A stretch of 64,000 bases of DNA from a virus. Made by a program: the position numbers and the translations under genes. Shown piece after piece: positions 3,363 through 23,132 of the stretch. The notes under the pieces were generated by a model. It saw only the letters and a program-made list of their open reading frames with translations, did not search any database and had not been told where the DNA came from. The stretch lies in the IMG/VR virus record IMGVR_UViG_3300016484_000310, positions 1 to 64,000 of that record; one strand, written 5' to 3'. The number at the start of each line of letters is the position of its first letter. Within the stretch, counting starts at the first letter, position 1.

Positions 3363-3569
3363 ATGCTCACTGCTGATCAAAGGGCAATGATCCAAAATCT
3401 GAAACGTCTTTCCAAATCTGCCAAGAAAGCTCCTTGGCACCATGGTGGTCATCCGGGACGTGATGGCAAACAAGTCTACAAACTGGCCAAGCCTGAAGAG
3501 GATCTCATCATCCTCATGAGGAACTCTGTGGATGAGCTGATCAAGATCATTGAGGAGAACATCCAATGA
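3363..3569 (+). CDS. hypothetical protein (68 aa)
   Basis: SD GGAGGA before the ATG. ATGA overlap with the next ORF. Confidence 0.55.
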   Translation: MLTADQRAMIQNLKRLSKSAKKAPWHHGGHPGRDGKQVYKLAKPEEDLIILMRNSVDELIKIIEENIQ

Positions 3570-4078
3570 AACCACTACCATCCAAGCAAATTCTCTGTAG
3601 CCTCTTAGACTACAACCCTCTTTCTGGAGAACTGACTTGGAAACCAAGAGGAATAGCTAACTGGGATGCACGATTTGCAAACAAAACAGCATTCACAGCC
3701 AATGATGGTCTTGGTTACAAGTGTGGGACTCTACTTGGAGAAAACTACAAAGCACACCAGATCATCTGGGCAATGATCCATGGAACATATCCAGAAGAGA
3801 TTGACCACATAGATCATGATCGGTCTAACAACCGATTAGACAATCTTCGAGAAGCAACTTCTCAGACCAATCGAAAGAACCAAACCAAACGCTTGGATAA
3901 TACTTCAGGCCATACTGGTGTTGTTCGAAGTAAAAACAAGAAAAAATGGATCGCACAGATTCATGATGGATCCAAGGTTGTCTACCTTGGGACTTTCGAG
4001 ACTCTTGAGGCAGCTATTGATGCAAGAAAAGCTGCTGAAAAACTCTACAACTATCACCCCAACCATGGAGCATCTTGA
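3566..4078 (+). CDS. free-standing HNH homing endonuclease with AP2-type DNA-binding domain
   Basis: HNH core EIDHIDHDRSNNRLDNLREATSQTNRKN, followed by an AP2-like segment NTSGHTGV...W.A.I...G..V.LG.F.T.EEA. Paralogue of 9261..9791. Confidence 0.8.
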   Translation: MKPLPSKQILCSLLDYNPLSGELTWKPRGIANWDARFANKTAFTANDGLGYKCGTLLGENYKAHQIIWAMIHGTYPEEIDHIDHDRSNNRLDNLREATSQTNRKNQTKRLDNTSGHTGVVRSKNKKKWIAQIHDGSKVVYLGTFETLEAAIDARKAAEKLYNYHPNHGAS

Positions 4079-4884
4079 TGAAACTGCCCACTAAGCAGAC
4101 CCAGAAAGATCTTGAGGACATCTACAATAAATGGAACCTCATGAAGATCCTTCGGAGTGAGTTTGAAACCATCGTGGATGAGAAGATTGCTGAAAAAGGT
4201 GTGGAACCTGCAATGGCGATTGATGCCCTCTGCCAGATGTATCTCCATCGTCAGGCTGATCCTGCGACTCTGGTTGGGATCCTCAGCCCCAAATACGGTG
4301 AACCCCAAGCAGTGGCTGACAAGCTGCTGATCCTCGTAGAAATGGACTTCTTCGACTTCAATGAAGACATGGATCGCTTCACTGTGACCTATGATCTTTC
4401 GGATGATGTCAAAGAGATGCTGGACCGCTTCCAGTTCCCTCTTCCGATGGTGGTTCAACCTCTGCCCATCAAAGACAACTTCGACACTGGCTACCTTGGA
4501 ATGAGAGGTCTTCTGGTCCTGAATGGATCTGAATACTTCGAAGACAAGGATCTGTGTCTGGATCACCTGAACAGGGCCAATCGTGTGGCTCTTGCCATGA
4601 ATTTCGATGTGATCAACTCGGATCAGGGCAAGTTCGTGAAACCTGTTCGTCAGGTGGGCGAAGACTTCGATGAGTATCGCAAGAGACTCAAACAGGCAGA
4701 GCAGTTCTACCAGACCTCGATCATCGTCATGGAGCAGATCAACCAGCTCAGTGATGAGATCTACCTCACTCACAAATACGACCGTCGTGGTCGTGTTTAT
4801 GCTTCTGGCTACCACATCAACACCCAAGGGGATGACTACAGGAAAGCTGTTCTCACCTTGGCCAACAAGGAGGTTCTGAAGTAA
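4075..4884 (+). CDS. N4 gp15-like RNA polymerase II small subunit (RNAP1)
   Basis: 269 aa. The T7-RNAP T/DxxGR motif appears as YDRRGRVYASGYHINTQGDDYRK (about 4777-4845). The size matches what I recall for N4 gp15. Confidence 0.8.
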   Translation: MMKLPTKQTQKDLEDIYNKWNLMKILRSEFETIVDEKIAEKGVEPAMAIDALCQMYLHRQADPATLVGILSPKYGEPQAVADKLLILVEMDFFDFNEDMDRFTVTYDLSDDVKEMLDRFQFPLPMVVQPLPIKDNFDTGYLGMRGLLVLNGSEYFEDKDLCLDHLNRANRVALAMNFDVINSDQGKFVKPVRQVGEDFDEYRKRLKQAEQFYQTSIIVMEQINQLSDEIYLTHKYDRRGRVYASGYHINTQGDDYRKAVLTLANKEVLK

Positions 4885-5402: not shown

Positions 5403-5624
5403 GTGACTCAGAACAACAAACTCTTCCACTGGATGGGTCCGAAGAAAGTCGTCTGGATTCCTGAGAAGGACATCAAATACTACAGCTCCCCCGAAGAAGC
5501 AGGGTTCTTGGTTGGTGTTCCCTTTCTGGTTCAACATGTAACCCATGGAACGTGGTCCAAAGGTGTCCGTCGTAAAGACATGACCATTGAATGGACTCAA
5601 GTCATCATCATCAAGGAGAACTGA
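5403..5624 (+). CDS. hypothetical protein (GTG start)
   Basis: SD AGGAGA 6 nt before GTG 5403. Internal start of track ORF 5310..5624. Confidence 0.45.
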   Translation: MTQNNKLFHWMGPKKVVWIPEKDIKYYSSPEEAGFLVGVPFLVQHVTHGTWSKGVRRKDMTIEWTQVIIIKEN

Positions 5625-5625
5625 A

Positions 5626-6177
5626 ATGGATCCCATCTACCTGCACAACTGGGACTCGAAGGAAGACATGATTGCTTCCTTTGAAGACGTATACGACAAG
5701 GACGAACTGACCCAAGAGCAGAAGGACAAGTATGCTCATGTGGATGTCCTGCTGGCCAGCTATGGCTGTGGCAACTACATTGGGGATGCCTTCGTTCTGT
5801 TCCGCAACACCAAGGACGGACAGCTCTATGAGAACCATGGGAGCCACTGCTCCTGCTATGGTCTGGAGAACCAGTGGGGTGAAGAATCCACCACCATCGA
5901 GAGTCTTCGGAAGCGTGTGAACGAAGGATCTCTGGGATCTGATGACTACAGCGACAACGTGTTCAAAGACGAACTCATCAAGGTTCTCGATGAACTCGAA
6001 GGCATCAAGCCCATGGTTCGCTGGGTGAAGGTTCCTGCTCCCGGAGAGATGAAGGGTGAAGGCACTTGGAAGAAATTCAACGATGTCTGGCCCGGTGGAA
6101 CCCATTGGGATGACCTCGTGGATACCAAGTTCCTTCCCACCAAGGAACTCGCTGAGGGAGAGACTCCCAGTGACTGA
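5626..6177 (+). CDS. hypothetical protein (183 aa)
   Basis: SD AAGGAGA before ATG 5626. Internal start of track ORF 5587..6177. Confidence 0.6.
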   Translation: MDPIYLHNWDSKEDMIASFEDVYDKDELTQEQKDKYAHVDVLLASYGCGNYIGDAFVLFRNTKDGQLYENHGSHCSCYGLENQWGEESTTIESLRKRVNEGSLGSDDYSDNVFKDELIKVLDELEGIKPMVRWVKVPAPGEMKGEGTWKKFNDVWPGGTHWDDLVDTKFLPTKELAEGETPSD

Positions 6178-7171: not shown

Positions 7172-7586
7172 ATGCAAGCCATGTTTGAACAACTGACCCC
7201 GATGGAATACCTCCAGTGCGAGATCGCCTGCAAAGCCGACAAGGCTTTCGAGAAAGAGACGTGGAAGAACCGTTTGGAGTTCTTCTCGACTCTGGATTTG
7301 GACGACAAAAAGATGATCAAGGCTGCTTCCAACCCCATTGGCCTGAAGGCTGCCATTCTGGCCTACCAACAGGCTGTGAAGGGTGAAGCCATTGGCTACA
7401 TGGTGTCTTTGGATGCTTGCTCCAGTGGTCTTCAGATCCTCTCTCTGCTGGTCTCCTGCGAGAAGAGCTTCGACCTTTGTGGTGGCGTGGCTGACAAGTG
7501 TGTGGACTCTTACACCACCATCTATGAAGCCATGCAGCTCAATGGTCGTCTGACTCGGAAGGCTGTGAAGCAAGCCATCATGACCT
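7172..7586 (+). CDS. N4 gp16-like RNA polymerase II large subunit (RNAP2), exon 1
   Basis: T7-like motif A SLDACSSGLQIL (about 7412-7435). Ends in the first half of motif B, KQAIMT. Predicted 5' splice site after T7586. Confidence 0.8.
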
Positions 7587-8413
7587 TTTGAGAAATGGGG
7601 TCAAACGGGTGGTAACATCCGTTAAGCAAATGTGTGAACTCAGGGAACCTCCCAACAGTTAGGCTGTGGACAATCCTGATCGAAGCCTTTACCACATGTG
7701 TATAGACCAAACCAAAGGTATGATACGCATGGAAGTCCGTCACTGCACAACTTGCAACACAACCAAACTGATCACTGACTTTCCAAAAGCCAAAGTGAAT
7801 CGTGTAGGGTTTCGTGACGCTACTCAATATAGCCCCTGTAAAGCATGTAATGCTCATAGGGCTAGAGAATGGCGTAGCAAAAACAAAGGTTATCGTGGTT
7901 CTGGTCGCATGACCAAATACGAAAACAAACCTTTGATTTCCGCAATCAGAACCAGACTTAGAGAAGCTCAAACGAGAATCAAAAAGTTTGGCAAGATTCC
8001 AACAGATCTCACAGAAGAATATCTCTATGAGCTGTTTAACAACCAACAAGGTAAATGTGCCCTGCTTGGTTATGACATGAAAATTCAGAGAGATCATCCT
8101 CTGAGTCTTTCCTTGGATCAAATCGAACCAAGCAAAGGATATGTCATTGGAAATGTGCAATGGGTCACTTGGATCTCTAATAGAGCTAAAGGTGATATGA
8201 ACCAAGACGACTTTTATCGCATGTGTGAACTTGCGATTGAGTATCGGAACGAGCAACGACTATCCCTCACGGGAGTAGGACCAAGTGGTCCGAAGCGCAC
8301 ATCTCCTGAGTAATCAGGATGAAGATATAGTCTGGTCTGCCAAGTAATTGGTAGCAGTCCTGAAATGAACCAACAGGACGGGCAAGGATTAACGACCCTT
8401 GTTGAACACAACG
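7587..8413 (+). mobile_element. group I intron (827 nt) carrying an HNH ORF
   Basis: P1: exon TGACCT (7581-7586) pairs with GGGTCA (7598-7603), with U.G at the cleavage site. AAGATATAGTC (8322-8332) matches the conserved group I S element. The stem ATCCTGAT (7673-7680)/ATCAGGAT (8313-8320) closes the ORF loop. The terminal nucleotide is G8413. Confidence 0.75.
7666..8313 (+). CDS. intron-encoded HNH-family homing endonuclease (start uncertain: 7666 GTG, 7696, 7720 or 7729 ATG)
   Basis: Cys pairs CTTC and CKAC. C-terminal LSLDQIEPSKGYVIGNVQWVTWISNRAKG resembles an HNH/endonuclease core. GC is lower than the flanking exons. Confidence 0.65.
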   Translation: MDNPDRSLYHMCIDQTKGMIRMEVRHCTTCNTTKLITDFPKAKVNRVGFRDATQYSPCKACNAHRAREWRSKNKGYRGSGRMTKYENKPLISAIRTRLREAQTRIKKFGKIPTDLTEEYLYELFNNQQGKCALLGYDMKIQRDHPLSLSLDQIEPSKGYVIGNVQWVTWISNRAKGDMNQDDFYRMCELAIEYRNEQRLSLTGVGPSGPKRTSPE

Positions 8414-9192
8414 CACTCTATGGTTCGACTGCTACCCCGGAAGCTGTGTTCGGTGACAACATCGACCTCTTTTATGAAACCATGGGACTGATGGCTCCCG
8501 GTGCATGGGATCTGAACCAAGGACTTCAAGACCTCTGGGAGATGTTCAAGTCCTCTGATTACGCATGGGTGCTGCCTGACAACTTCCATGCCTACATCGA
8601 GACGAAGACATCTGAGATCGTTCCCTTCACCTTCCTGAACACGCCCTACAAGCTGGTGAGGAAGATTGACGGTCGTCCTGAGTTCCACAAGGGACTTGGC
8701 CCCAATCTGATCCACTCGATTGATGGCATGATCGTGAGGGAGATGTTCCGTCGTTGCAGTTACGATCCGAAGACCATCACTCGGGTCAATGATCTGCTCA
8801 TCGTCGGAGCCAACGGAACCAATGGGAAATCTGGTCCCATGGTTCAGACTCTCTGGAACCACTACACGGAGACCGGGTTCCTCAGCACCCGGATCTTTGA
8901 CTACCTGTTCCATGACACCATTGGGCTGGTTGATCAGACTATCATCAAAGCTCTGATCGACACTCTTCCTGCTCAACCCTTTGACATGGTGTCGGTCCAT
9001 GACTGCTTCAGATGCCATCCGAACTATGGCAACGACCTTCGTCGTCAGTATCAGCACATCCTTGCTGATCTGAATGACTCTCACCTTCTGTCCAACCTGT
9101 GTTCTCAGATCGCAGGCAAGAAAGTGAAAACCAAGAAAGTCGGTCATCTGACTCGTCAGACCATCATGGAGTCCAACTATATGCTTGCATGA
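8414..9192 (+). CDS. RNAP2, exon 2
   Basis: Resumes with (S)LYGS, the second half of motif B. Then GLGPNLIHSIDG and motif C SVHDCF (about 8995-9009). Exons 1 and 2 total 1194 nt, which is 398 codons in frame. Confidence 0.8.
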
Positions 9193-9260: not shown

Positions 9261-9791
9261 ATGCTGACTCAACAAGACGTTCAACAGCTATTAGACTACG
9301 ATTCTACAACTGGATTGCTTTATTGGAAGACAAGATCTCCAGATTTGTTTAATAACCAAAGACTGTGTAATTCTTGGAATGCTCAATACGCAGGAAAAGA
9401 GGCTTTTACTTCTGATAATGGTCGTGGGTATAAACAAGGAACAATTAACAACAAACTATATAAAGCCCATAGAATCATTTTTCTAATGAACTATGGGTAT
9501 TGGCCAGATCAAATTGATCATATTGATCAAAATAGGTCAAACAATCGTCTTTCAAATCTAAGAGAAGTTTCAAATACAGAAAATCAGAAAAATGCAAGAA
9601 AAAGAGTAGACAACACTAGTGGTAAAACAGGGGTCACTTGGAACAAACTTGTAAATGCTTGGTATGCTCGTATTGGGGTTAATGGTGTTAAGGTAACTAT
9701 TGGTAGATTTGATACAAAAGAAGAAGCAATCAAAGCTAGACTTGAAGCTGAAAAACTCTACAACTACCATCCTAACCATGGTAAGGGATAG
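9261..9791 (+). CDS. free-standing HNH-AP2 homing endonuclease (AT-rich paralogue)
   Basis: Contains QIDHIDQNRSNNRLSNLREVSNTENQKN plus an AP2-like segment. Its last residues, AEKLYNYHPNHG, match those of 3566..4078. Visibly lower GC. Confidence 0.8.
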   Translation: MLTQQDVQQLLDYDSTTGLLYWKTRSPDLFNNQRLCNSWNAQYAGKEAFTSDNGRGYKQGTINNKLYKAHRIIFLMNYGYWPDQIDHIDQNRSNNRLSNLREVSNTENQKNARKRVDNTSGKTGVTWNKLVNAWYARIGVNGVKVTIGRFDTKEEAIKARLEAEKLYNYHPNHGKG

Positions 9792-19881: not shown

Positions 19882-20298
19882 ATGAAGAAATTTCTCCTCG
19901 GGGCTGTAGCCCTTGCTACCCTCGGTGTGCTGGCAGCCTGTGAGCGGCCTGCTGACGTGGCTTCCCGAAATATCTCGATGGCTGCTGACAACTTCGAGAT
20001 CATGCGTCGGATCGTGTTCTACAATGGCATCACCGATGCCTACATTCTGGAGGTGACTGGCTATTGCTCCATCGGCAATGACAATACCGCTGACCAGTTC
20101 ACGATCACCTGCAAGGACTCGTCTGGCTTCAAGAAGCACTTCCTCGGGCTGTCGGACAACGTGACCTATTTTTCCGAACAAGTGGACTCGGTTCCGGTCT
20201 CGACGTTCCATACTCGTGTGCTGTGGCGTCCTCAGACGGTTCTCCCAGATGTGGACTTCCAAGGCTCTCTGGATGAGCTGACGACCAACAACAACTGA
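19882..20298 (+). CDS. lipoprotein
   Basis: Signal peptide MKKFLLGAVALATLGVLAAC with the lipobox L-A-A-C. Confidence 0.65.
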   Translation: MKKFLLGAVALATLGVLAACERPADVASRNISMAADNFEIMRRIVFYNGITDAYILEVTGYCSIGNDNTADQFTITCKDSSGFKKHFLGLSDNVTYFSEQVDSVPVSTFHTRVLWRPQTVLPDVDFQGSLDELTTNNN

Positions 20299-20358
20299 GA
20301 TACAGGCTATCAGCTCACCGTTGAAAGAATACGGACAAGTCGGCTCGACCTGTATGTT

Positions 20359-20392
20359 AGACCTCCCAAGAAATTGGGAGGTCTTTCTTTTT
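20359..20392 (+). terminator. rho-independent terminator
   Basis: AGACCTCCCA-AGAAAT-TGGGAGGTCT followed by TTCTTTTT. Confidence 0.85.
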
Positions 20393-20480
20393 GACCTGGA
20401 GATCGTCTAGGTGGGGCGTTTCAAGTGGGACAGAAATCGAAAGAGAACTGTATTCCCGCCCTTGGTTCAGGACACTCAGA

Positions 20481-20556
20481 CAGGGGAGATTATCTCGTCT
20501 AACCATAGGACACCCCGACTTGAGAAACACAGGTTCGAATCCTGTTCTCCGGTCCA
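20481..20556 (+). ncRNA. tRNA-like element (T arm, acceptor and CCA; no canonical D or anticodon arms found)
   Basis: ACAGG-TTCGAAT-CCTGT (20529-20545), then TCTCCGG-T-CCA. CAGGGGA (20481-20487) pairs 6 of 7 with the 3' strand. I could not fold a cloverleaf by eye. Confidence 0.35.
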
Positions 20557-20582
20557 TTTCCGTGAAACAAAGGAACCCTTCA

Positions 20583-23132
20583 ATGGAAGTCATGAATCGC
20601 GCTGAGCTGACCCAGACTGATATTCTGGTCGGCCAGAAATCTGTCACTCGCAGCTTTGGTGTCTCTGATGACCCCATGCTGATGTCCATGCTCTCGACTG
20701 GCTTCTACCAGAAGCCTCTGAGAACCATGATCCAAGAGGTCATGTTCAATGCTTGGGATGCTCATCGTATGGGCAACTGTCAGCATCGTCCCATCGACAT
20801 CTACCTGAATGAAACCACAGGTCTGGTCATTCGGGACTATGGTCCGGGTATCGAACCCGGTGAGAACGACGACAACATGCACGAAATCTATTGCATGTAT
20901 GGTGGTTCGACCAAGCGCAAGCTCAAGAATCAGACTGGTGGTTTCGGTCTGGGATCCAAATCCCCCTTCGCCTATACCGAGTCTTTCACTGTCACCTCAT
21001 TCTTTGGTGGCATGAAGAACATGTATCTCATCTCTCGGGTCTCTGAAGCCAATGAAGACAAGCCGGGGATGACTTCTCTGGTTCGTGTTCCCACCACAGA
21101 GACAGGTCTTCTGGTCACTGTTCCCCTTAAAAAAGGGGATCTGATCAAAGCTTATGAGAATGTGAAGGACGTTCTGTTCCTCAGTGGAATCAAAGCTATG
21201 GTCCATCTGGAAGGTGAACCAGACGAATTCGTAGACTCTACTACTTTGGCTGCTGGAGAATACCTGATTGATGAGAACCATCGTCAGGGGCGAATCTGGG
21301 CAGTCTACGGTGGTGTTCGGTATGAGATCCCGAACTTCGAAGAATACTCTGATGAGTATGACTTCATGAAGCTCATCTCCAAAGGCTTCGATCTCTTCGT
21401 TGGCTTTGCTCCTGACACTCTCAGCCCTCTTCCCAACCGGGAAGGTCTCAACATGGGTGAGAAATCCAAGGAGAGTGTGAAGGCTACCTTCGAACTCTGC
21501 ATGGAACGATTTGAAGTTCTGGTTGAACCAATCACTCGTCTGTTCTTCAAGATCCTGTTTGAAGACAAGAAGAAGAACGACATCCAAGGTGAGTTCGCTT
21601 TCATCGAAGTCGCCAAAATTGGTGCTGACCAAGATGCAGGTGGTCTGAAGCATGTCCTCATCGAAAGGCTTTTCAAAGAAAAGCCTGCTGATGTCGAAAC
21701 CAATCTCTGGAAAGTCATGGTTCAGCTTATTGTCTATCAGACAAGTGCTGTCATGAGGCATGTGAGTGTGAACCGCTGGAGGATGATGTTGCTCAAAGAG
21801 TTCATCAAGGTTTATCCTGAATCCAAGCCTTTGGCTTATGCTGCTCTCAAAGAGAGTTTCCACAAGGCTTTCCCTCTCCATACCAGAGATGCTTCTCAGA
21901 CCTTTGTATCTGAGTTCACTCGTCTCAAGTTCTTGAGAGATCAGGCAAATTTCGTGCGAGCCATGAAAGAAGCCTATCCTGAAGATCTGTCTTTGCATCC
22001 TGTCATGAGGGTCTGCAAGGATGACGACTGGGAGTCTGCTGGATGGGATCGTGGTTTCGCCAACATTCCCAAGACGGAATATGGAACCAAGAACCTCAGA
22101 GCTGATGATCCTCGTCTGGTTCGGAAACCCAAAGGCATCTGTCTGACTGACCTCTTCACCAAGAAGCGTGGAGAGCAGATGTCCTTCTGTATGATGGACA
22201 AGACTGTCATCATTGCCAAGACAGCCACCGTGCTGAAAGACATGATGACTCCTTCTTTGGTTCAAGCTCACAGCAACATCATGAGAGGCCGTCACTACTA
22301 CTACGACGGTGTAAGTGTTGCTTGCCCTGCTTACGTCGTCCATGAACGGAAAGGGGCATATGAGAAAGCCAAGAAGATTCTTCTGGAAATGGGATTCAGC
22401 ATCTACGAAGCTGCTGAACCAGAGAAGAGAGTCTACACTCCCAAGGCCAAGGTCATTCCGACTTATCCTCTGATTCGTCCTGCAAATGCTGAGACTTGGC
22501 AAAGCAGCAATCCGGGAGATCAGCTCACTGATCCGACTCACTTCTTCTATGCCACTCAGGCTACCCTGAAAGGCTACAGCTCGGGAGAACGTCCTGAACG
22601 TGAACTGGTCTACTGGTTCATGAAGAAGCATCCCAAGTTTGTGGCTCTCAACCACTCTCGTTCTGTGGATGCAGTCAAGAAGCTGGGAGCAATCCCCTTC
22701 TATGACGAAGTGATCAAATGGTATGACGCTCAGTCTACCAATGTGGATCGAATGATGAATATCGTTCGAGCTGCACGAATCAATGAGTGGACTCCTTTCC
22801 CGGATACCCTTCTTCGCCATCCCCTGATCCAACTGGAACTGGGTATGGAGCCTGTGGACTCCAATGATTCAGACTTCTGGTATGAATCTCAAGGGATCCA
22901 ACTTCTGATGAACACAGGGTATTACCCCCTTGTGAACACCAAACGGAAAGTTTCCAAGGATCTGGAAGATCTCTGGAGACAAGACCCAGAGTCCAAGAAC
23001 ATCCGCAAGATGTGTGATGCTTCGAAGATCTTCAACTCTTCGACCATCTCTTCTCTGTGGTCTGAAACTGAACCCACGAAACAGAATGAGTTCGTGGATT
23101 CGGTCATTACCACCCTCAAACTGTTCTCATGA
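20583..23132 (+). CDS. rIIA: rIIA-like protein (GHKL ATPase fold)
   Basis: SD AAGGAA before ATG 20583. GHKL motifs EVMFNAWDAH, DYGPGI and GGFGLGSKS. The track ORF start at 20391 would read through the terminator and the tRNA-like element. Confidence 0.7.
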   Translation: MEVMNRAELTQTDILVGQKSVTRSFGVSDDPMLMSMLSTGFYQKPLRTMIQEVMFNAWDAHRMGNCQHRPIDIYLNETTGLVIRDYGPGIEPGENDDNMHEIYCMYGGSTKRKLKNQTGGFGLGSKSPFAYTESFTVTSFFGGMKNMYLISRVSEANEDKPGMTSLVRVPTTETGLLVTVPLKKGDLIKAYENVKDVLFLSGIKAMVHLEGEPDEFVDSTTLAAGEYLIDENHRQGRIWAVYGGVRYEIPNFEEYSDEYDFMKLISKGFDLFVGFAPDTLSPLPNREGLNMGEKSKESVKATFELCMERFEVLVEPITRLFFKILFEDKKKNDIQGEFAFIEVAKIGADQDAGGLKHVLIERLFKEKPADVETNLWKVMVQLIVYQTSAVMRHVSVNRWRMMLLKEFIKVYPESKPLAYAALKESFHKAFPLHTRDASQTFVSEFTRLKFLRDQANFVRAMKEAYPEDLSLHPVMRVCKDDDWESAGWDRGFANIPKTEYGTKNLRADDPRLVRKPKGICLTDLFTKKRGEQMSFCMMDKTVIIAKTATVLKDMMTPSLVQAHSNIMRGRHYYYDGVSVACPAYVVHERKGAYEKAKKILLEMGFSIYEAAEPEKRVYTPKAKVIPTYPLIRPANAETWQSSNPGDQLTDPTHFFYATQATLKGYSSGERPERELVYWFMKKHPKFVALNHSRSVDAVKKLGAIPFYDEVIKWYDAQSTNVDRMMNIVRAARINEWTPFPDTLLRHPLIQLELGMEPVDSNDSDFWYESQGIQLLMNTGYYPLVNTKRKVSKDLEDLWRQDPESKNIRKMCDASKIFNSSTISSLWSETEPTKQNEFVDSVITTLKLFS

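Follow-up and report, generated by a model that had tools for sequence, protein, structure and literature searches.

The DNA analyzed here is the 64,000-nt stretch at positions 1 to 64,000 of IMG/VR virus record IMGVR_UViG_3300016484_000310 (hereafter the window), the source of which is an N4-like podovirus (Schitoviridae). Among cultured phages, roseophages are its closest relatives, and its RNAP2, the N4 gp16-type RNA polymerase subunit, is approximately 55–60% identical to theirs at the protein level. Three plus-strand open reading frames (ORFs) lie at the RNAP2 locus, one of 139 amino acids (aa; 7172-7591), one of 194-215 aa (within 7666-8313), and one of 275 aa (8365-9192). The first carries motif A (..SLDACSSGLQ..) and the first half of motif B (K-QAI-M-T), ending in ..KQAIMTF and a stop codon; the last holds the Y-G-S of motif B within LYGS, followed by GPNLIHSIDG and motif C (VHDCF). 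A reading made from the letters of the window without database searches (the sequence-only reading) had proposed that a group I intron with an endonuclease ORF splits motif B (K-x3-M-T, then x2-Y-G-S) between 7586 and 8414, and this was borne out by alignment, covariation, and an intron-less allele. Thus, we hold with high confidence that the RNAP2 gene is split inside motif B by an 827-nt mobile group I intron of subgroup IA2, which carries an endonuclease ORF. The coordinates of all features are listed in Table 1.

Compared with the PHROG profile phrog_2051 (401 positions), residues 5-138 of the exon-1 ORF matched positions 1-139, and residues 17-275 of the exon-2 ORF matched positions 140-401. 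The two matches abut at 139/140, therefore indicating one gene cut by a clean insertion. Joining 7586 to 8414, as the sequence-only reading had done, gives 1194 nt in frame and a 397-aa product with IMT-S-LYGS at the junction (..KQAIMTSLYGS..), the predicted ligated-exon sequence being ATGACCT followed by CACTCTATGG. Motifs A, B, and C of this spliced RNAP2 read DACSSGLQ, K..IMTSLYGS, and VHDCF. Residues 8-396 of the spliced protein aligned with residues 4-403 of N4 RNAP2 (PDB 6dt7_B, 404 aa; E 2e-83), and the alignment was unbroken across the junction, where N4 has KQAIMTALYGS and the window KQAIMTSLYGS. N4 gp16 is a full-length orthologue of the spliced product, whereas the window gene needs splicing to make that protein.

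Intron-less gp16 homologues confirmed the same junction. At least 80% of the spliced protein was covered at one place in 417 of 469 phage records, so that an uninterrupted RNAP2 is common to most relatives, and none of the best 40 of the 469 records needed more than one piece for RNAP2. With tblastn, 57 of 59 viral-contig relatives matched once; 6 of these 57 matches were partial (5 truncated by the contig or the match, and the Vibrio phage pVco-5, which carries an intron at the site termed A below), and 3 loci were split at the motif-B site. The alternative that the two ORFs are naturally separate subunits found no counterpart, as homologues never showed a complete motif B in one of two subunits. 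Furthermore, the closest phage, represented by contigs L126 and L162, has exons 95–96% identical to those of the window and no intron. Its intron-less allele on L126 (CTGTGAAGCAAGCCATCATGACTTCCCTCTATGGTTCG, encoding AVKQAIMTSLYGS with ...KQAIMTSLYGS...) reads GCCATCATGACTTCCCTCTATGGTTCG around the insertion site and differs there from the predicted ligated exons by just two silent changes, ACC/ACT and TCA/TCC. The exact junction between 7586 and 8414 is, on sequence evidence, fixed by three independent lines, namely 6dt7_B, the read-through homologues, and the intron-less allele. DNA similarity to roseophage RNAP2 genes likewise begins at approximately 8413/8414. Searching the 64-kb window found a single RNAP2 and a single intron, and an intact second RNAP2 copy elsewhere in the window was rejected by that result; an intein was ruled out by in-frame stop codons right after the 5′ junction.

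At the 5′ end of the insert, exon TGACCT (7581-7586) is complementary to GGGTCA (7598-7603) with U7586 opposite G7598, and the insert ends in G8413, just as the sequence-only reading had described; the U7586·G7598 pair of P1 marks the 5′ splice site. An in-frame UGA (7589-7591) occurs 3 nt into the intron. The guanine-plus-cytosine (GC) content is 44% for the intron versus 51–52% for the exons. The covariance-model check that had been suggested, with Rfam RF00028 (Intron_gpI), found the core, matching 7578-8354 over the full model (1-253) with 38.2 bits; the E-value was 5.5e-8 on 1 kb and 3.5e-6 on the whole 64-kb window, where this was the sole such match. The intron appears in the Rfam scan when reporting is by E-value, and at the gathering threshold the scan of the whole window returned tRNAs only. 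The sub-threshold score likely arises because approximately 620 nt of ORF inside the core are treated as an insertion. The conserved J8/7-P7 element, UGAAGAUAUAGUC at 8320-8332, agrees with the Rfam consensus, and AAGATATAGTC at 8322-8332 had been picked out as this element without the model.

For folding, 563 nt of ORF-specific sequence were swapped for a tetraloop. The minimum-energy fold of this ORF-less core gave P1, P2, P3, P4, P5/P5a, P7.1, P7.2, P8, P9, P9.1, and P9.2. Subgroup IA2 is recognized by two additional helices, P7.1 and P7.2, with GUA between them (PMC3428280), and the window intron has these helices between P7 and the 3′ strand of P3 (UCCC..GGGA-GUA-GGACC..GGUCC), which places it by sequence in IA2. 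One element of the sequence-only reading did not survive, namely an 8-bp stem (7673-7680 with 8313-8320) closing the loop that contains the ORF. The two strands are complementary in the window and are paired when the full 843-nt RNA is folded to minimum energy, but homologues (n = 7) give just 3-5 contiguous pairs. The stem was rejected for its lack of conservation and because its two strands are already part of covarying helices, being the 3′ strands of P4 and P8, which happen to be similar in sequence in the window intron.

Covariation was then assessed in a MAFFT alignment of eight ORF-less RNAP2 intron cores, the window included (alignment A1). The formal count took in the helices that MAFFT kept in register (P3, P4, P5, P7, P7.2, P9, and P9.2), while P1, P2, P7.1, P8, and P9.1, mis-registered between two intron types, were excluded and checked per sequence. 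Standard pairs occupied 97% of cells versus 33–42% with partners slid by 1-3 columns, 23 of the 38 pairs were changed on both sides, and no shuffle out of 500 matched any observed measure. Both-sided changes occurred at 4 positions of P3 among the 8 sequences, at 3 positions each of P4 and P7.2 (both 100% paired), in 6 of 7 pairs of P9, and in all 5 of P9.2. Among the helices checked per sequence, P2 showed compensatory changes (UCACCU/AGGUGA in L017, UAUCUA/UAGAUA in the cultured phage XC38), and the P8 site had a hairpin in every homologue, each of different sequence. The ribozyme architecture and its covariation are shown here by computation.

A script check extended to 13 introns found the U·G at the splice site and the terminal G in all 13, and in every one the joined exons restored K-x3-M-T-x2-Y-(G/F/N)-(S/K) in frame. 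Supportively, the guide co-varied with the exon end (GGCCGU/GCGGCC, GGCGAU/GUCGCC, AAGCAU/GUGCUU, AGCCAU/GUGGCU, and UGACCU/GGGUCA). A guide that tracks its exon is otherwise hard to explain, suggesting that P1 is in use, i.e., that the RNA splices.

Table 1. Features of the interrupted RNAP2 locus and of the nearby RNAP1 gene in the 64,000-nt window
Feature	Position	Strand	Evidence
RNAP1, N4 gp15-like small subunit of heterodimeric RNAPII	4075..4884	+	phrog_2166 'N4-like RNA polymerase', E 1.9e-75
RNAP2 exon 1 (residues 1-138 and first base of codon 139)	7172..7586	+	phrog_2051 positions 1-139; 6dt7_B alignment
P1, exon UGACCU 7581-7586 / internal guide GGGUCA 7598-7603	7581..7603	+	complementarity; 13 homologous introns
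Group I intron, subgroup IA2, 827 nt	7587..8413	+	RF00028 38.2 bits, E 5.5e-8; covariation; composition
P2 hairpin ACGGGU/AUCCGU	7605..7622	+	fold of ORF-less core
P3 5′ strand AUGUGUG, partner 8296-8302	7630..7636	+	7/7 pairs in 8/8 sequences
P4 (7640-7645/7674-7679) enclosing P5 (7650-7652/7668-7670) and P5a (7655-7658/7664-7667)	7640..7679	+	fold, covariation
P6a-region hairpin, CAUGUGUAU 7695-7703 / AUACGCAUG 7723-7731	7695..7731	+	fold of 7681-7760
Putative endonuclease ORF, 194 aa from ATG 7729 (197 aa from ATG 7720)	7729..8313	+	phrog_1035 E 1.3e-32; homologues; AF2; Foldseek
P7 5′ strand GACUA, partner UAGUC 8328-8332, pseudoknot with P3	8258..8262	+	Rfam consensus; invariant in 8/8
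P7.1 (8263-8266/8271-8274), GUA, P7.2 (8278-8282/8287-8291)	8263..8291	+	IA2 hallmark; covariation
P3 3′ strand CGCACAU	8296..8302	+	alignment of 8 introns
P8 hairpin UCCUGA GUAA UCAGGA	8304..8319	+	fold of ORF-less core
J8/7 and P7 3′ strand, UGAAGAUA-UAGUC	8320..8332	+	Rfam consensus UgAAGAUAUAGUC
P9 (8337-8343/8348-8354, GUAA loop), P9.1 (8357-8362/8374-8379), P9.2 (8383-8387/8397-8401)	8337..8401	+	fold; covariation
Terminal G (omega-G), predicted 3′ splice site between 8413 and 8414	8413	+	13/13 introns end in G; intron-less allele
RNAP2 exon 2 (last two bases of codon 139 to stop)	8414..9192	+	phrog_2051 positions 140-401; 6dt7_B alignment

The intron was more conserved than the gene that houses it. 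Compared with contig L305, it was 92.9% identical (its first 102 nt 100%), and the exons were 74.5% and 77% identical; compared with L311, the corresponding figures were 87.4% for the intron and 63% and 53% for the exons. Higher conservation than the host gene, absence from the closest relative, and a lower GC content together make up a signature of horizontal mobility, by which the sequence appears to be a classical horizontally moving intron. In metagenome 3300016675 of IMG/VR the genome of the closest relative falls into two contigs (61.9 kb and 12.9 kb), the ends of which (L126 1-40 and L162 3380-3413) share 22 nt exactly at the insertion site. Such a break is what a mixed population of intron-plus and intron-minus phages would give, and may have arisen in that way.

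Within motif B, homologous RNAP2 introns are found at two sites that lie 8 nt apart. Site B, directly after ATGACCU (Met-Thr plus 1 nt), is used in the window, L305, L311, L017, and XC38, and site A, inside the codon before Met, in JWAlpha, HN04, L173, phi 1, pVco-5, and L307-L310. The introns at the two sites differ in features of P1, P2, and P7.1, with the guide matching the exon in each case. The endonuclease of the window, however, shared approximately 70% identity with the site-A ORF of L307 (2501-3109) versus 43–47% with the site-B ORFs of XC38 (L004 2483-3010) and L017. As endonuclease similarity does not follow the insertion site, these comparisons suggest that ribozyme and ORF modules have been exchanged. 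Homologues of the endonuclease were found between N- and C-terminal RNAP2 ORFs in all six metagenomic contigs looked up, as well as in L017 and L173 of IMG/VR. On the divergent N4-like contig L310 (3174-4579), where the motif reads MTFAYNK, the C-terminal part of RNAP2 is called as two ORFs of 129 and 233 aa, which could reflect a second interruption or a frameshift.

The ORF inside the intron starts in the P6a region and runs through P7, P7.1, P7.2, and the 3′ strand of P3 into the P8 loop, where its stop codon TAA (8311-8313) lies. The hairpin of the P6a region buries ATG 7720, ATG 7729, and a Shine-Dalgarno-like AAGG, and JWAlpha, HN04, phi 1, and XC38 have equivalent hairpins of other sequences, again with an AUG in the 3′ strand. 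This arrangement resembles the translational sequestration known for T4 intron endonucleases. In the encoded protein, an N-terminal zinc ribbon (CxxC...CxxC) is followed by an HNH-like module at the C-terminal end, LSLDQIEPSKGYVIGNVQW..NRAKGD. The sequence-only reading had called it an HNH ORF, and this probably holds at the level of the fold family but not at that of a recognizable domain sequence or of the catalytic histidine. The best PHROG match was phrog_1035 'endonuclease VII' (E 1.3e-32), followed by HNH phrogs at approximately 1e-8. Alignment of 121 homologues (alignment A2), 0 of which contained a Pfam domain, revealed an invariant C-terminal S-x-D-(Q/K)-I-x-P-x-x-G-Y-x-x-G-N-V-Q-W...N-R-A-K-G-D. 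An AlphaFold2 (AF2) model made from the homologue alignment (predicted local distance difference test score, pLDDT, 87) placed a strand-strand-helix at residues 126-154. In pairwise alignment with the Endo VII-like protein of Yersinia phage Berlin, LSLDQI corresponded to LVVDHC and NRAKG to NRALG; N142 and N151 are invariant, and the position of the His in Berlin 'VVDHC' is Gln, or Lys in relatives ('LSLDQI' in the window). The protein is accordingly described as a divergent HNH/Endo VII-like protein on the basis of its modelled fold, and the family may have a variant active site, as in PacI, or be a nickase.

Free-standing HNH_3-type genes (phrog_99) were observed at 3566-4078 (E 7e-58) and 9261-9791 (E 7e-66). 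They flank the polymerase genes, one lying directly upstream of RNAP1, the gp15-type partner subunit gene of an N4-type RNAPII that is present nearby on the same strand (+), and the other directly downstream of RNAP2. An HNH gene right after RNAP2 is also present in L305 and XC38.

The nearest known ribozymes are those in T7-like DNA polymerase genes. The 3′ 178 nt of the window intron are approximately 69% identical to the intron of Yersinia phage Berlin, whose DNA polymerase gene is annotated as a two-piece join. The two share the order of elements, GUGUAAC-GACUAUCC..GGGA-GUA-GG.CCAAGUGG..C-GAA...AAGAUAUAGUCUG...GAUUAACGACCC.UGUUGAACAC..G up to the splice site, and long identical stretches; in both, P7.1 and P7.2 are joined by GUA, and the insertion is in a catalytic motif of a family-A-type polymerase fold. 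In T7-like DNA polymerase introns the ORF extends from P6a through P7, P7.1, and P7.2 (Kong et al. 2012, PMC3428280), as it does in the window, and these introns were reported to self-splice (Bonocora & Shub 2004, as cited in PMC3428280). Unlike in Berlin, the host gene in the window encodes an RNA polymerase and not a DNA polymerase, and splicing is deduced. The endonucleases differ as well, having 194 aa in the window versus 144 aa in Berlin, marginal similarity (BLASTP E 0.099), and Gln in place of the catalytic His of Berlin. By its sequence, the window ribozyme is assigned to the lineage of the T7-like DNA polymerase introns.

Two pattern searches of viral contigs were carried out. ATGACCT-N9-11-GGGGTCA gave at least 120 mostly chance matches and was too unspecific, L017 alone being relevant among those listed. 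The P7.1-P7.2-P3′ core pattern AGTANNNNCAAGTGNNNNGAAGNGC matched at least 120 viral contigs or loci, almost all outside RNAP2. Among the matches listed, L017 was the sole new RNAP2 case, and most represented the same intron lineage in other genes. Judged from these sequences, the IA2 lineage of the window intron occurs widely in phage genes other than RNAP2.

In GenBank, the intron is present in at least nine cultured N4-like phages, namely the Achromobacter phages JWAlpha and JWDelta, the Vibrio phages phi 1, pVco-5, and pVco-7, the Burkholderia phages HN02, HN04, and HN05, and XC38. These phages have a homologous intron and endonuclease (40–52% aa identity) in the same motif B of the same gene. 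In XC38 the intron is at the nucleotide used in the window, directly after ATGACCT, whereas in JWAlpha, HN04, phi 1, and pVco-5 it lies 8 nt upstream, with a different P1, an absent or different P2, and a longer P7.1. The GenBank records inspected annotate separate genes and no intron. The sequence-only reading knew of no such interruption in the RNAP2 of N4-like phages, but an interrupted RNAP2 had already been noticed in JWAlpha and JWDelta (Wittmann et al. 2014, PMC3915230); what was new is its nature, as it was not called an intron there, and a later paper took the JWAlpha-type interruption as 'two RNAP2'.

A second kind of RNAP2 interruption is known from Pseudomonas phage ZC08 (KU356691), for which Amgarten et al. 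2017 (PMC5418858) reported a homing-endonuclease insertion, without calling it an intron, and drew on it in speculating how split RNAPs arose. The ZC08 insert scored 88.9 bits with RF00028 (E 6e-23; L313 19704-20680, KU356691 approximately 49.7-50.7 kb), and it is likewise predicted to be a group I intron that holds an HNH-type ORF and interrupts a catalytic motif of an N4-type RNAP2. Its site differs, being in motif C after GTGCATGACT (between VHD and CF), and its ORF lies downstream of the core and not inside. This 209-aa ORF (20017-20646), annotated as a hypothetical protein and grouped with HNH endonucleases of G7C and EE36P1 (PMC5418858), had no tblastn match to the window endonuclease. 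Other N4-like phages share the group I/HNH kind of element but in host genes that differ from that of the window: a group I intron in td of Vibrio phage pVa5 (PMC5746245), and suspected introns in gp24, DNAP, and gp43 of Vibrio phages JA1 and VchO139-I (PMC3670811). An RNAP subunit gene of jumbo phage PhiPA3 has an intron with a homing endonuclease (PMC12908238), but that RNAP is of the multisubunit type and not of the T7/N4-type single-subunit family as in the window. A literature search outside subscription journals turned up no paper that explicitly describes an intron in the RNAP2 of N4-like phages or Schitoviridae. Within the searchable literature, the present case is the first in which a group I intron is recognized in an RNA polymerase gene of the T7/N4 (single-subunit-type) family.

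Several observations weigh against an active intron with a homing endonuclease. The 38.2 bits obtained with RF00028 are below the curated gathering score of 50, so that a default gathering scan misses the intron. A conserved P6 was looked for and not convincingly defined, just a GC/GC 2-bp candidate being seen; the local P6 hairpin of the Rfam alignment, with the ORF in J6/7, was neither confirmed nor replaced by it. P7 is invariant and hence provides no covariation evidence, P10 is weak (approximately 3 bp by eye), and splicing is inferred from sequence for the window intron and for every other RNAP2 intron. As to the ORF, a Pfam search at E<=10 returned noise only and no family, and a PDB sequence search gave no match. 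The top Foldseek matches were nearly all HNH proteins (Cas9 HNH, PacI 3ldy, McrA), consistent with each other but weak (E approximately 1e-2, template-modelling score, TM, approximately 0.3-0.5), and throughout the family Gln or Lys stands where HNH enzymes have their canonical histidine; nuclease activity is therefore uncertain. Nevertheless, the homologous introns in other N4-like phages settle the group I identity of the element at the sequence level, despite the sub-threshold Rfam score.

An insertion of this kind could also have left RNAP2 as a gene in pieces, in which a homing endonuclease split it into two separately translated polypeptides (139 aa and approximately 275 aa) that reassemble. 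N4 RNAPII is already a two-subunit form of a T7-like enzyme, NrdA of phage Aeh1 is split by mobE, and homing endonuclease insertion has been argued as a possible origin of split phage RNAPs (Amgarten et al., PMC5418858). The downstream ORF, moreover, has an in-frame ATG at 8365, and GenBank annotates the halves as separate genes. The break, however, falls within a single helix of motif B, with the Lys/Met-Thr on one side and the Tyr-Gly-Ser on the other, and a complete ribozyme with compensatory changes and an exon-tracking guide would be pointless without splicing. Read from the sequence, ATG 8365 has no obvious Shine-Dalgarno; upstream in-frame starts of the C-terminal piece are not conserved, and the annotated start in XC38 is downstream of YGS. 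We therefore regard separately translated halves as very unlikely.

The sub-threshold score would equally fit a dead intron that does not splice, which would make RNAP2 a pseudogene and the contig a defective genome. But the core helices are all intact, two other phages share an identical 5′ core even though their exons have diverged, and both exons of the window gene are open and conserved. The arrangement is shared, moreover, by cultured, plaque-forming lytic phages (JWAlpha, XC38, phi 1, pVco-5, and HN04), and RNAP2 counts among the core genes listed for N4-like phages (PMC5418858), all of which makes a dead intron highly improbable. That the 827-nt insert was joined into RNAP2 by mis-assembly was also considered, given that the assembly of the closest relative breaks exactly here in one metagenome and the locus is hence hard to assemble. 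The same insert, however, is present at the same nucleotide in the independent assemblies L305, L311, and L017 and in the isolate XC38, and it conforms to the U·G and terminal-G rules, with the reading frame restored when the exons are joined; a chimera is extremely unlikely.

With the group I intron as the preferred reading, expression of RNAP2 could proceed as follows. The genes for N4 RNAP1 and RNAP2 both belong to the early class. The early pre-mRNA of the window phage would fold into the ribozyme, with exon UGACCU pairing with the guide GGGUCA to form P1. Exogenous guanosine would attack after U7586, and G8413 would then take the guanosine site in P7, the exons being ligated by two guanosine-dependent transesterifications. 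The ligated mRNA would be translated into the 397-aa RNAP2 (..KQAIMTSLYGS..), and on unspliced RNA the UGA at 7589-7591 would stop ribosomes and keep them out of the ribozyme. By analogy, the HNH-like endonuclease may cut or nick the intron-less RNAP2 of co-infecting relatives, after which repair would copy the intron in (homing); its activity and target are presumed on the same ground. RNAP2 together with RNAP1 forms the polymerase that transcribes the N4 middle genes (PMC3915230), and middle transcription would then depend on splicing.

The JWAlpha-type 'interrupted' RNAP2, the function of which has been in question since 2014, can be read as containing a well-formed putative self-splicing intron, and the gene is to be annotated as a joined coding sequence. 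RNAP2 is a recurrent intron target in N4-like phages, with three sites, two in motif B and one in motif C. Gene callers as well as pangenome and core-gene analyses of Schitoviridae will miscount RNAP2, the default Rfam threshold overlooks this class of intron, and the insertion site can cause breaks in metagenome assemblies. That essential phage enzymes are interrupted in their active-site motifs by group I introns with HNH endonucleases is textbook knowledge, and the element is of this expected kind, a mobile intron in such a motif, and involves no new mechanism. As a speculation that we consider rather unlikely, the RNAP2 introns might do more than persist as passive parasites. By cutting the one gene without which a co-infecting intron-less N4-like phage would not get beyond its early phase, the endonuclease might serve as an interference weapon, a role reported for the intron in the PhiPA3 RNAP, and/or splicing might time the switch from early to middle transcription, with endonuclease and ribozyme modules reshuffled between the two sites and the guide re-evolved to match.

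Elsewhere in the window, three tRNA genes occur at its start (1-47, truncated; 71-127; and 165-238). A 196-aa ORF at 5587-6177 matched phrog_21421 'integrase' (E 1.6e-40), which is unexpected in a lytic N4-like phage, and the label is probably a misleading family name.

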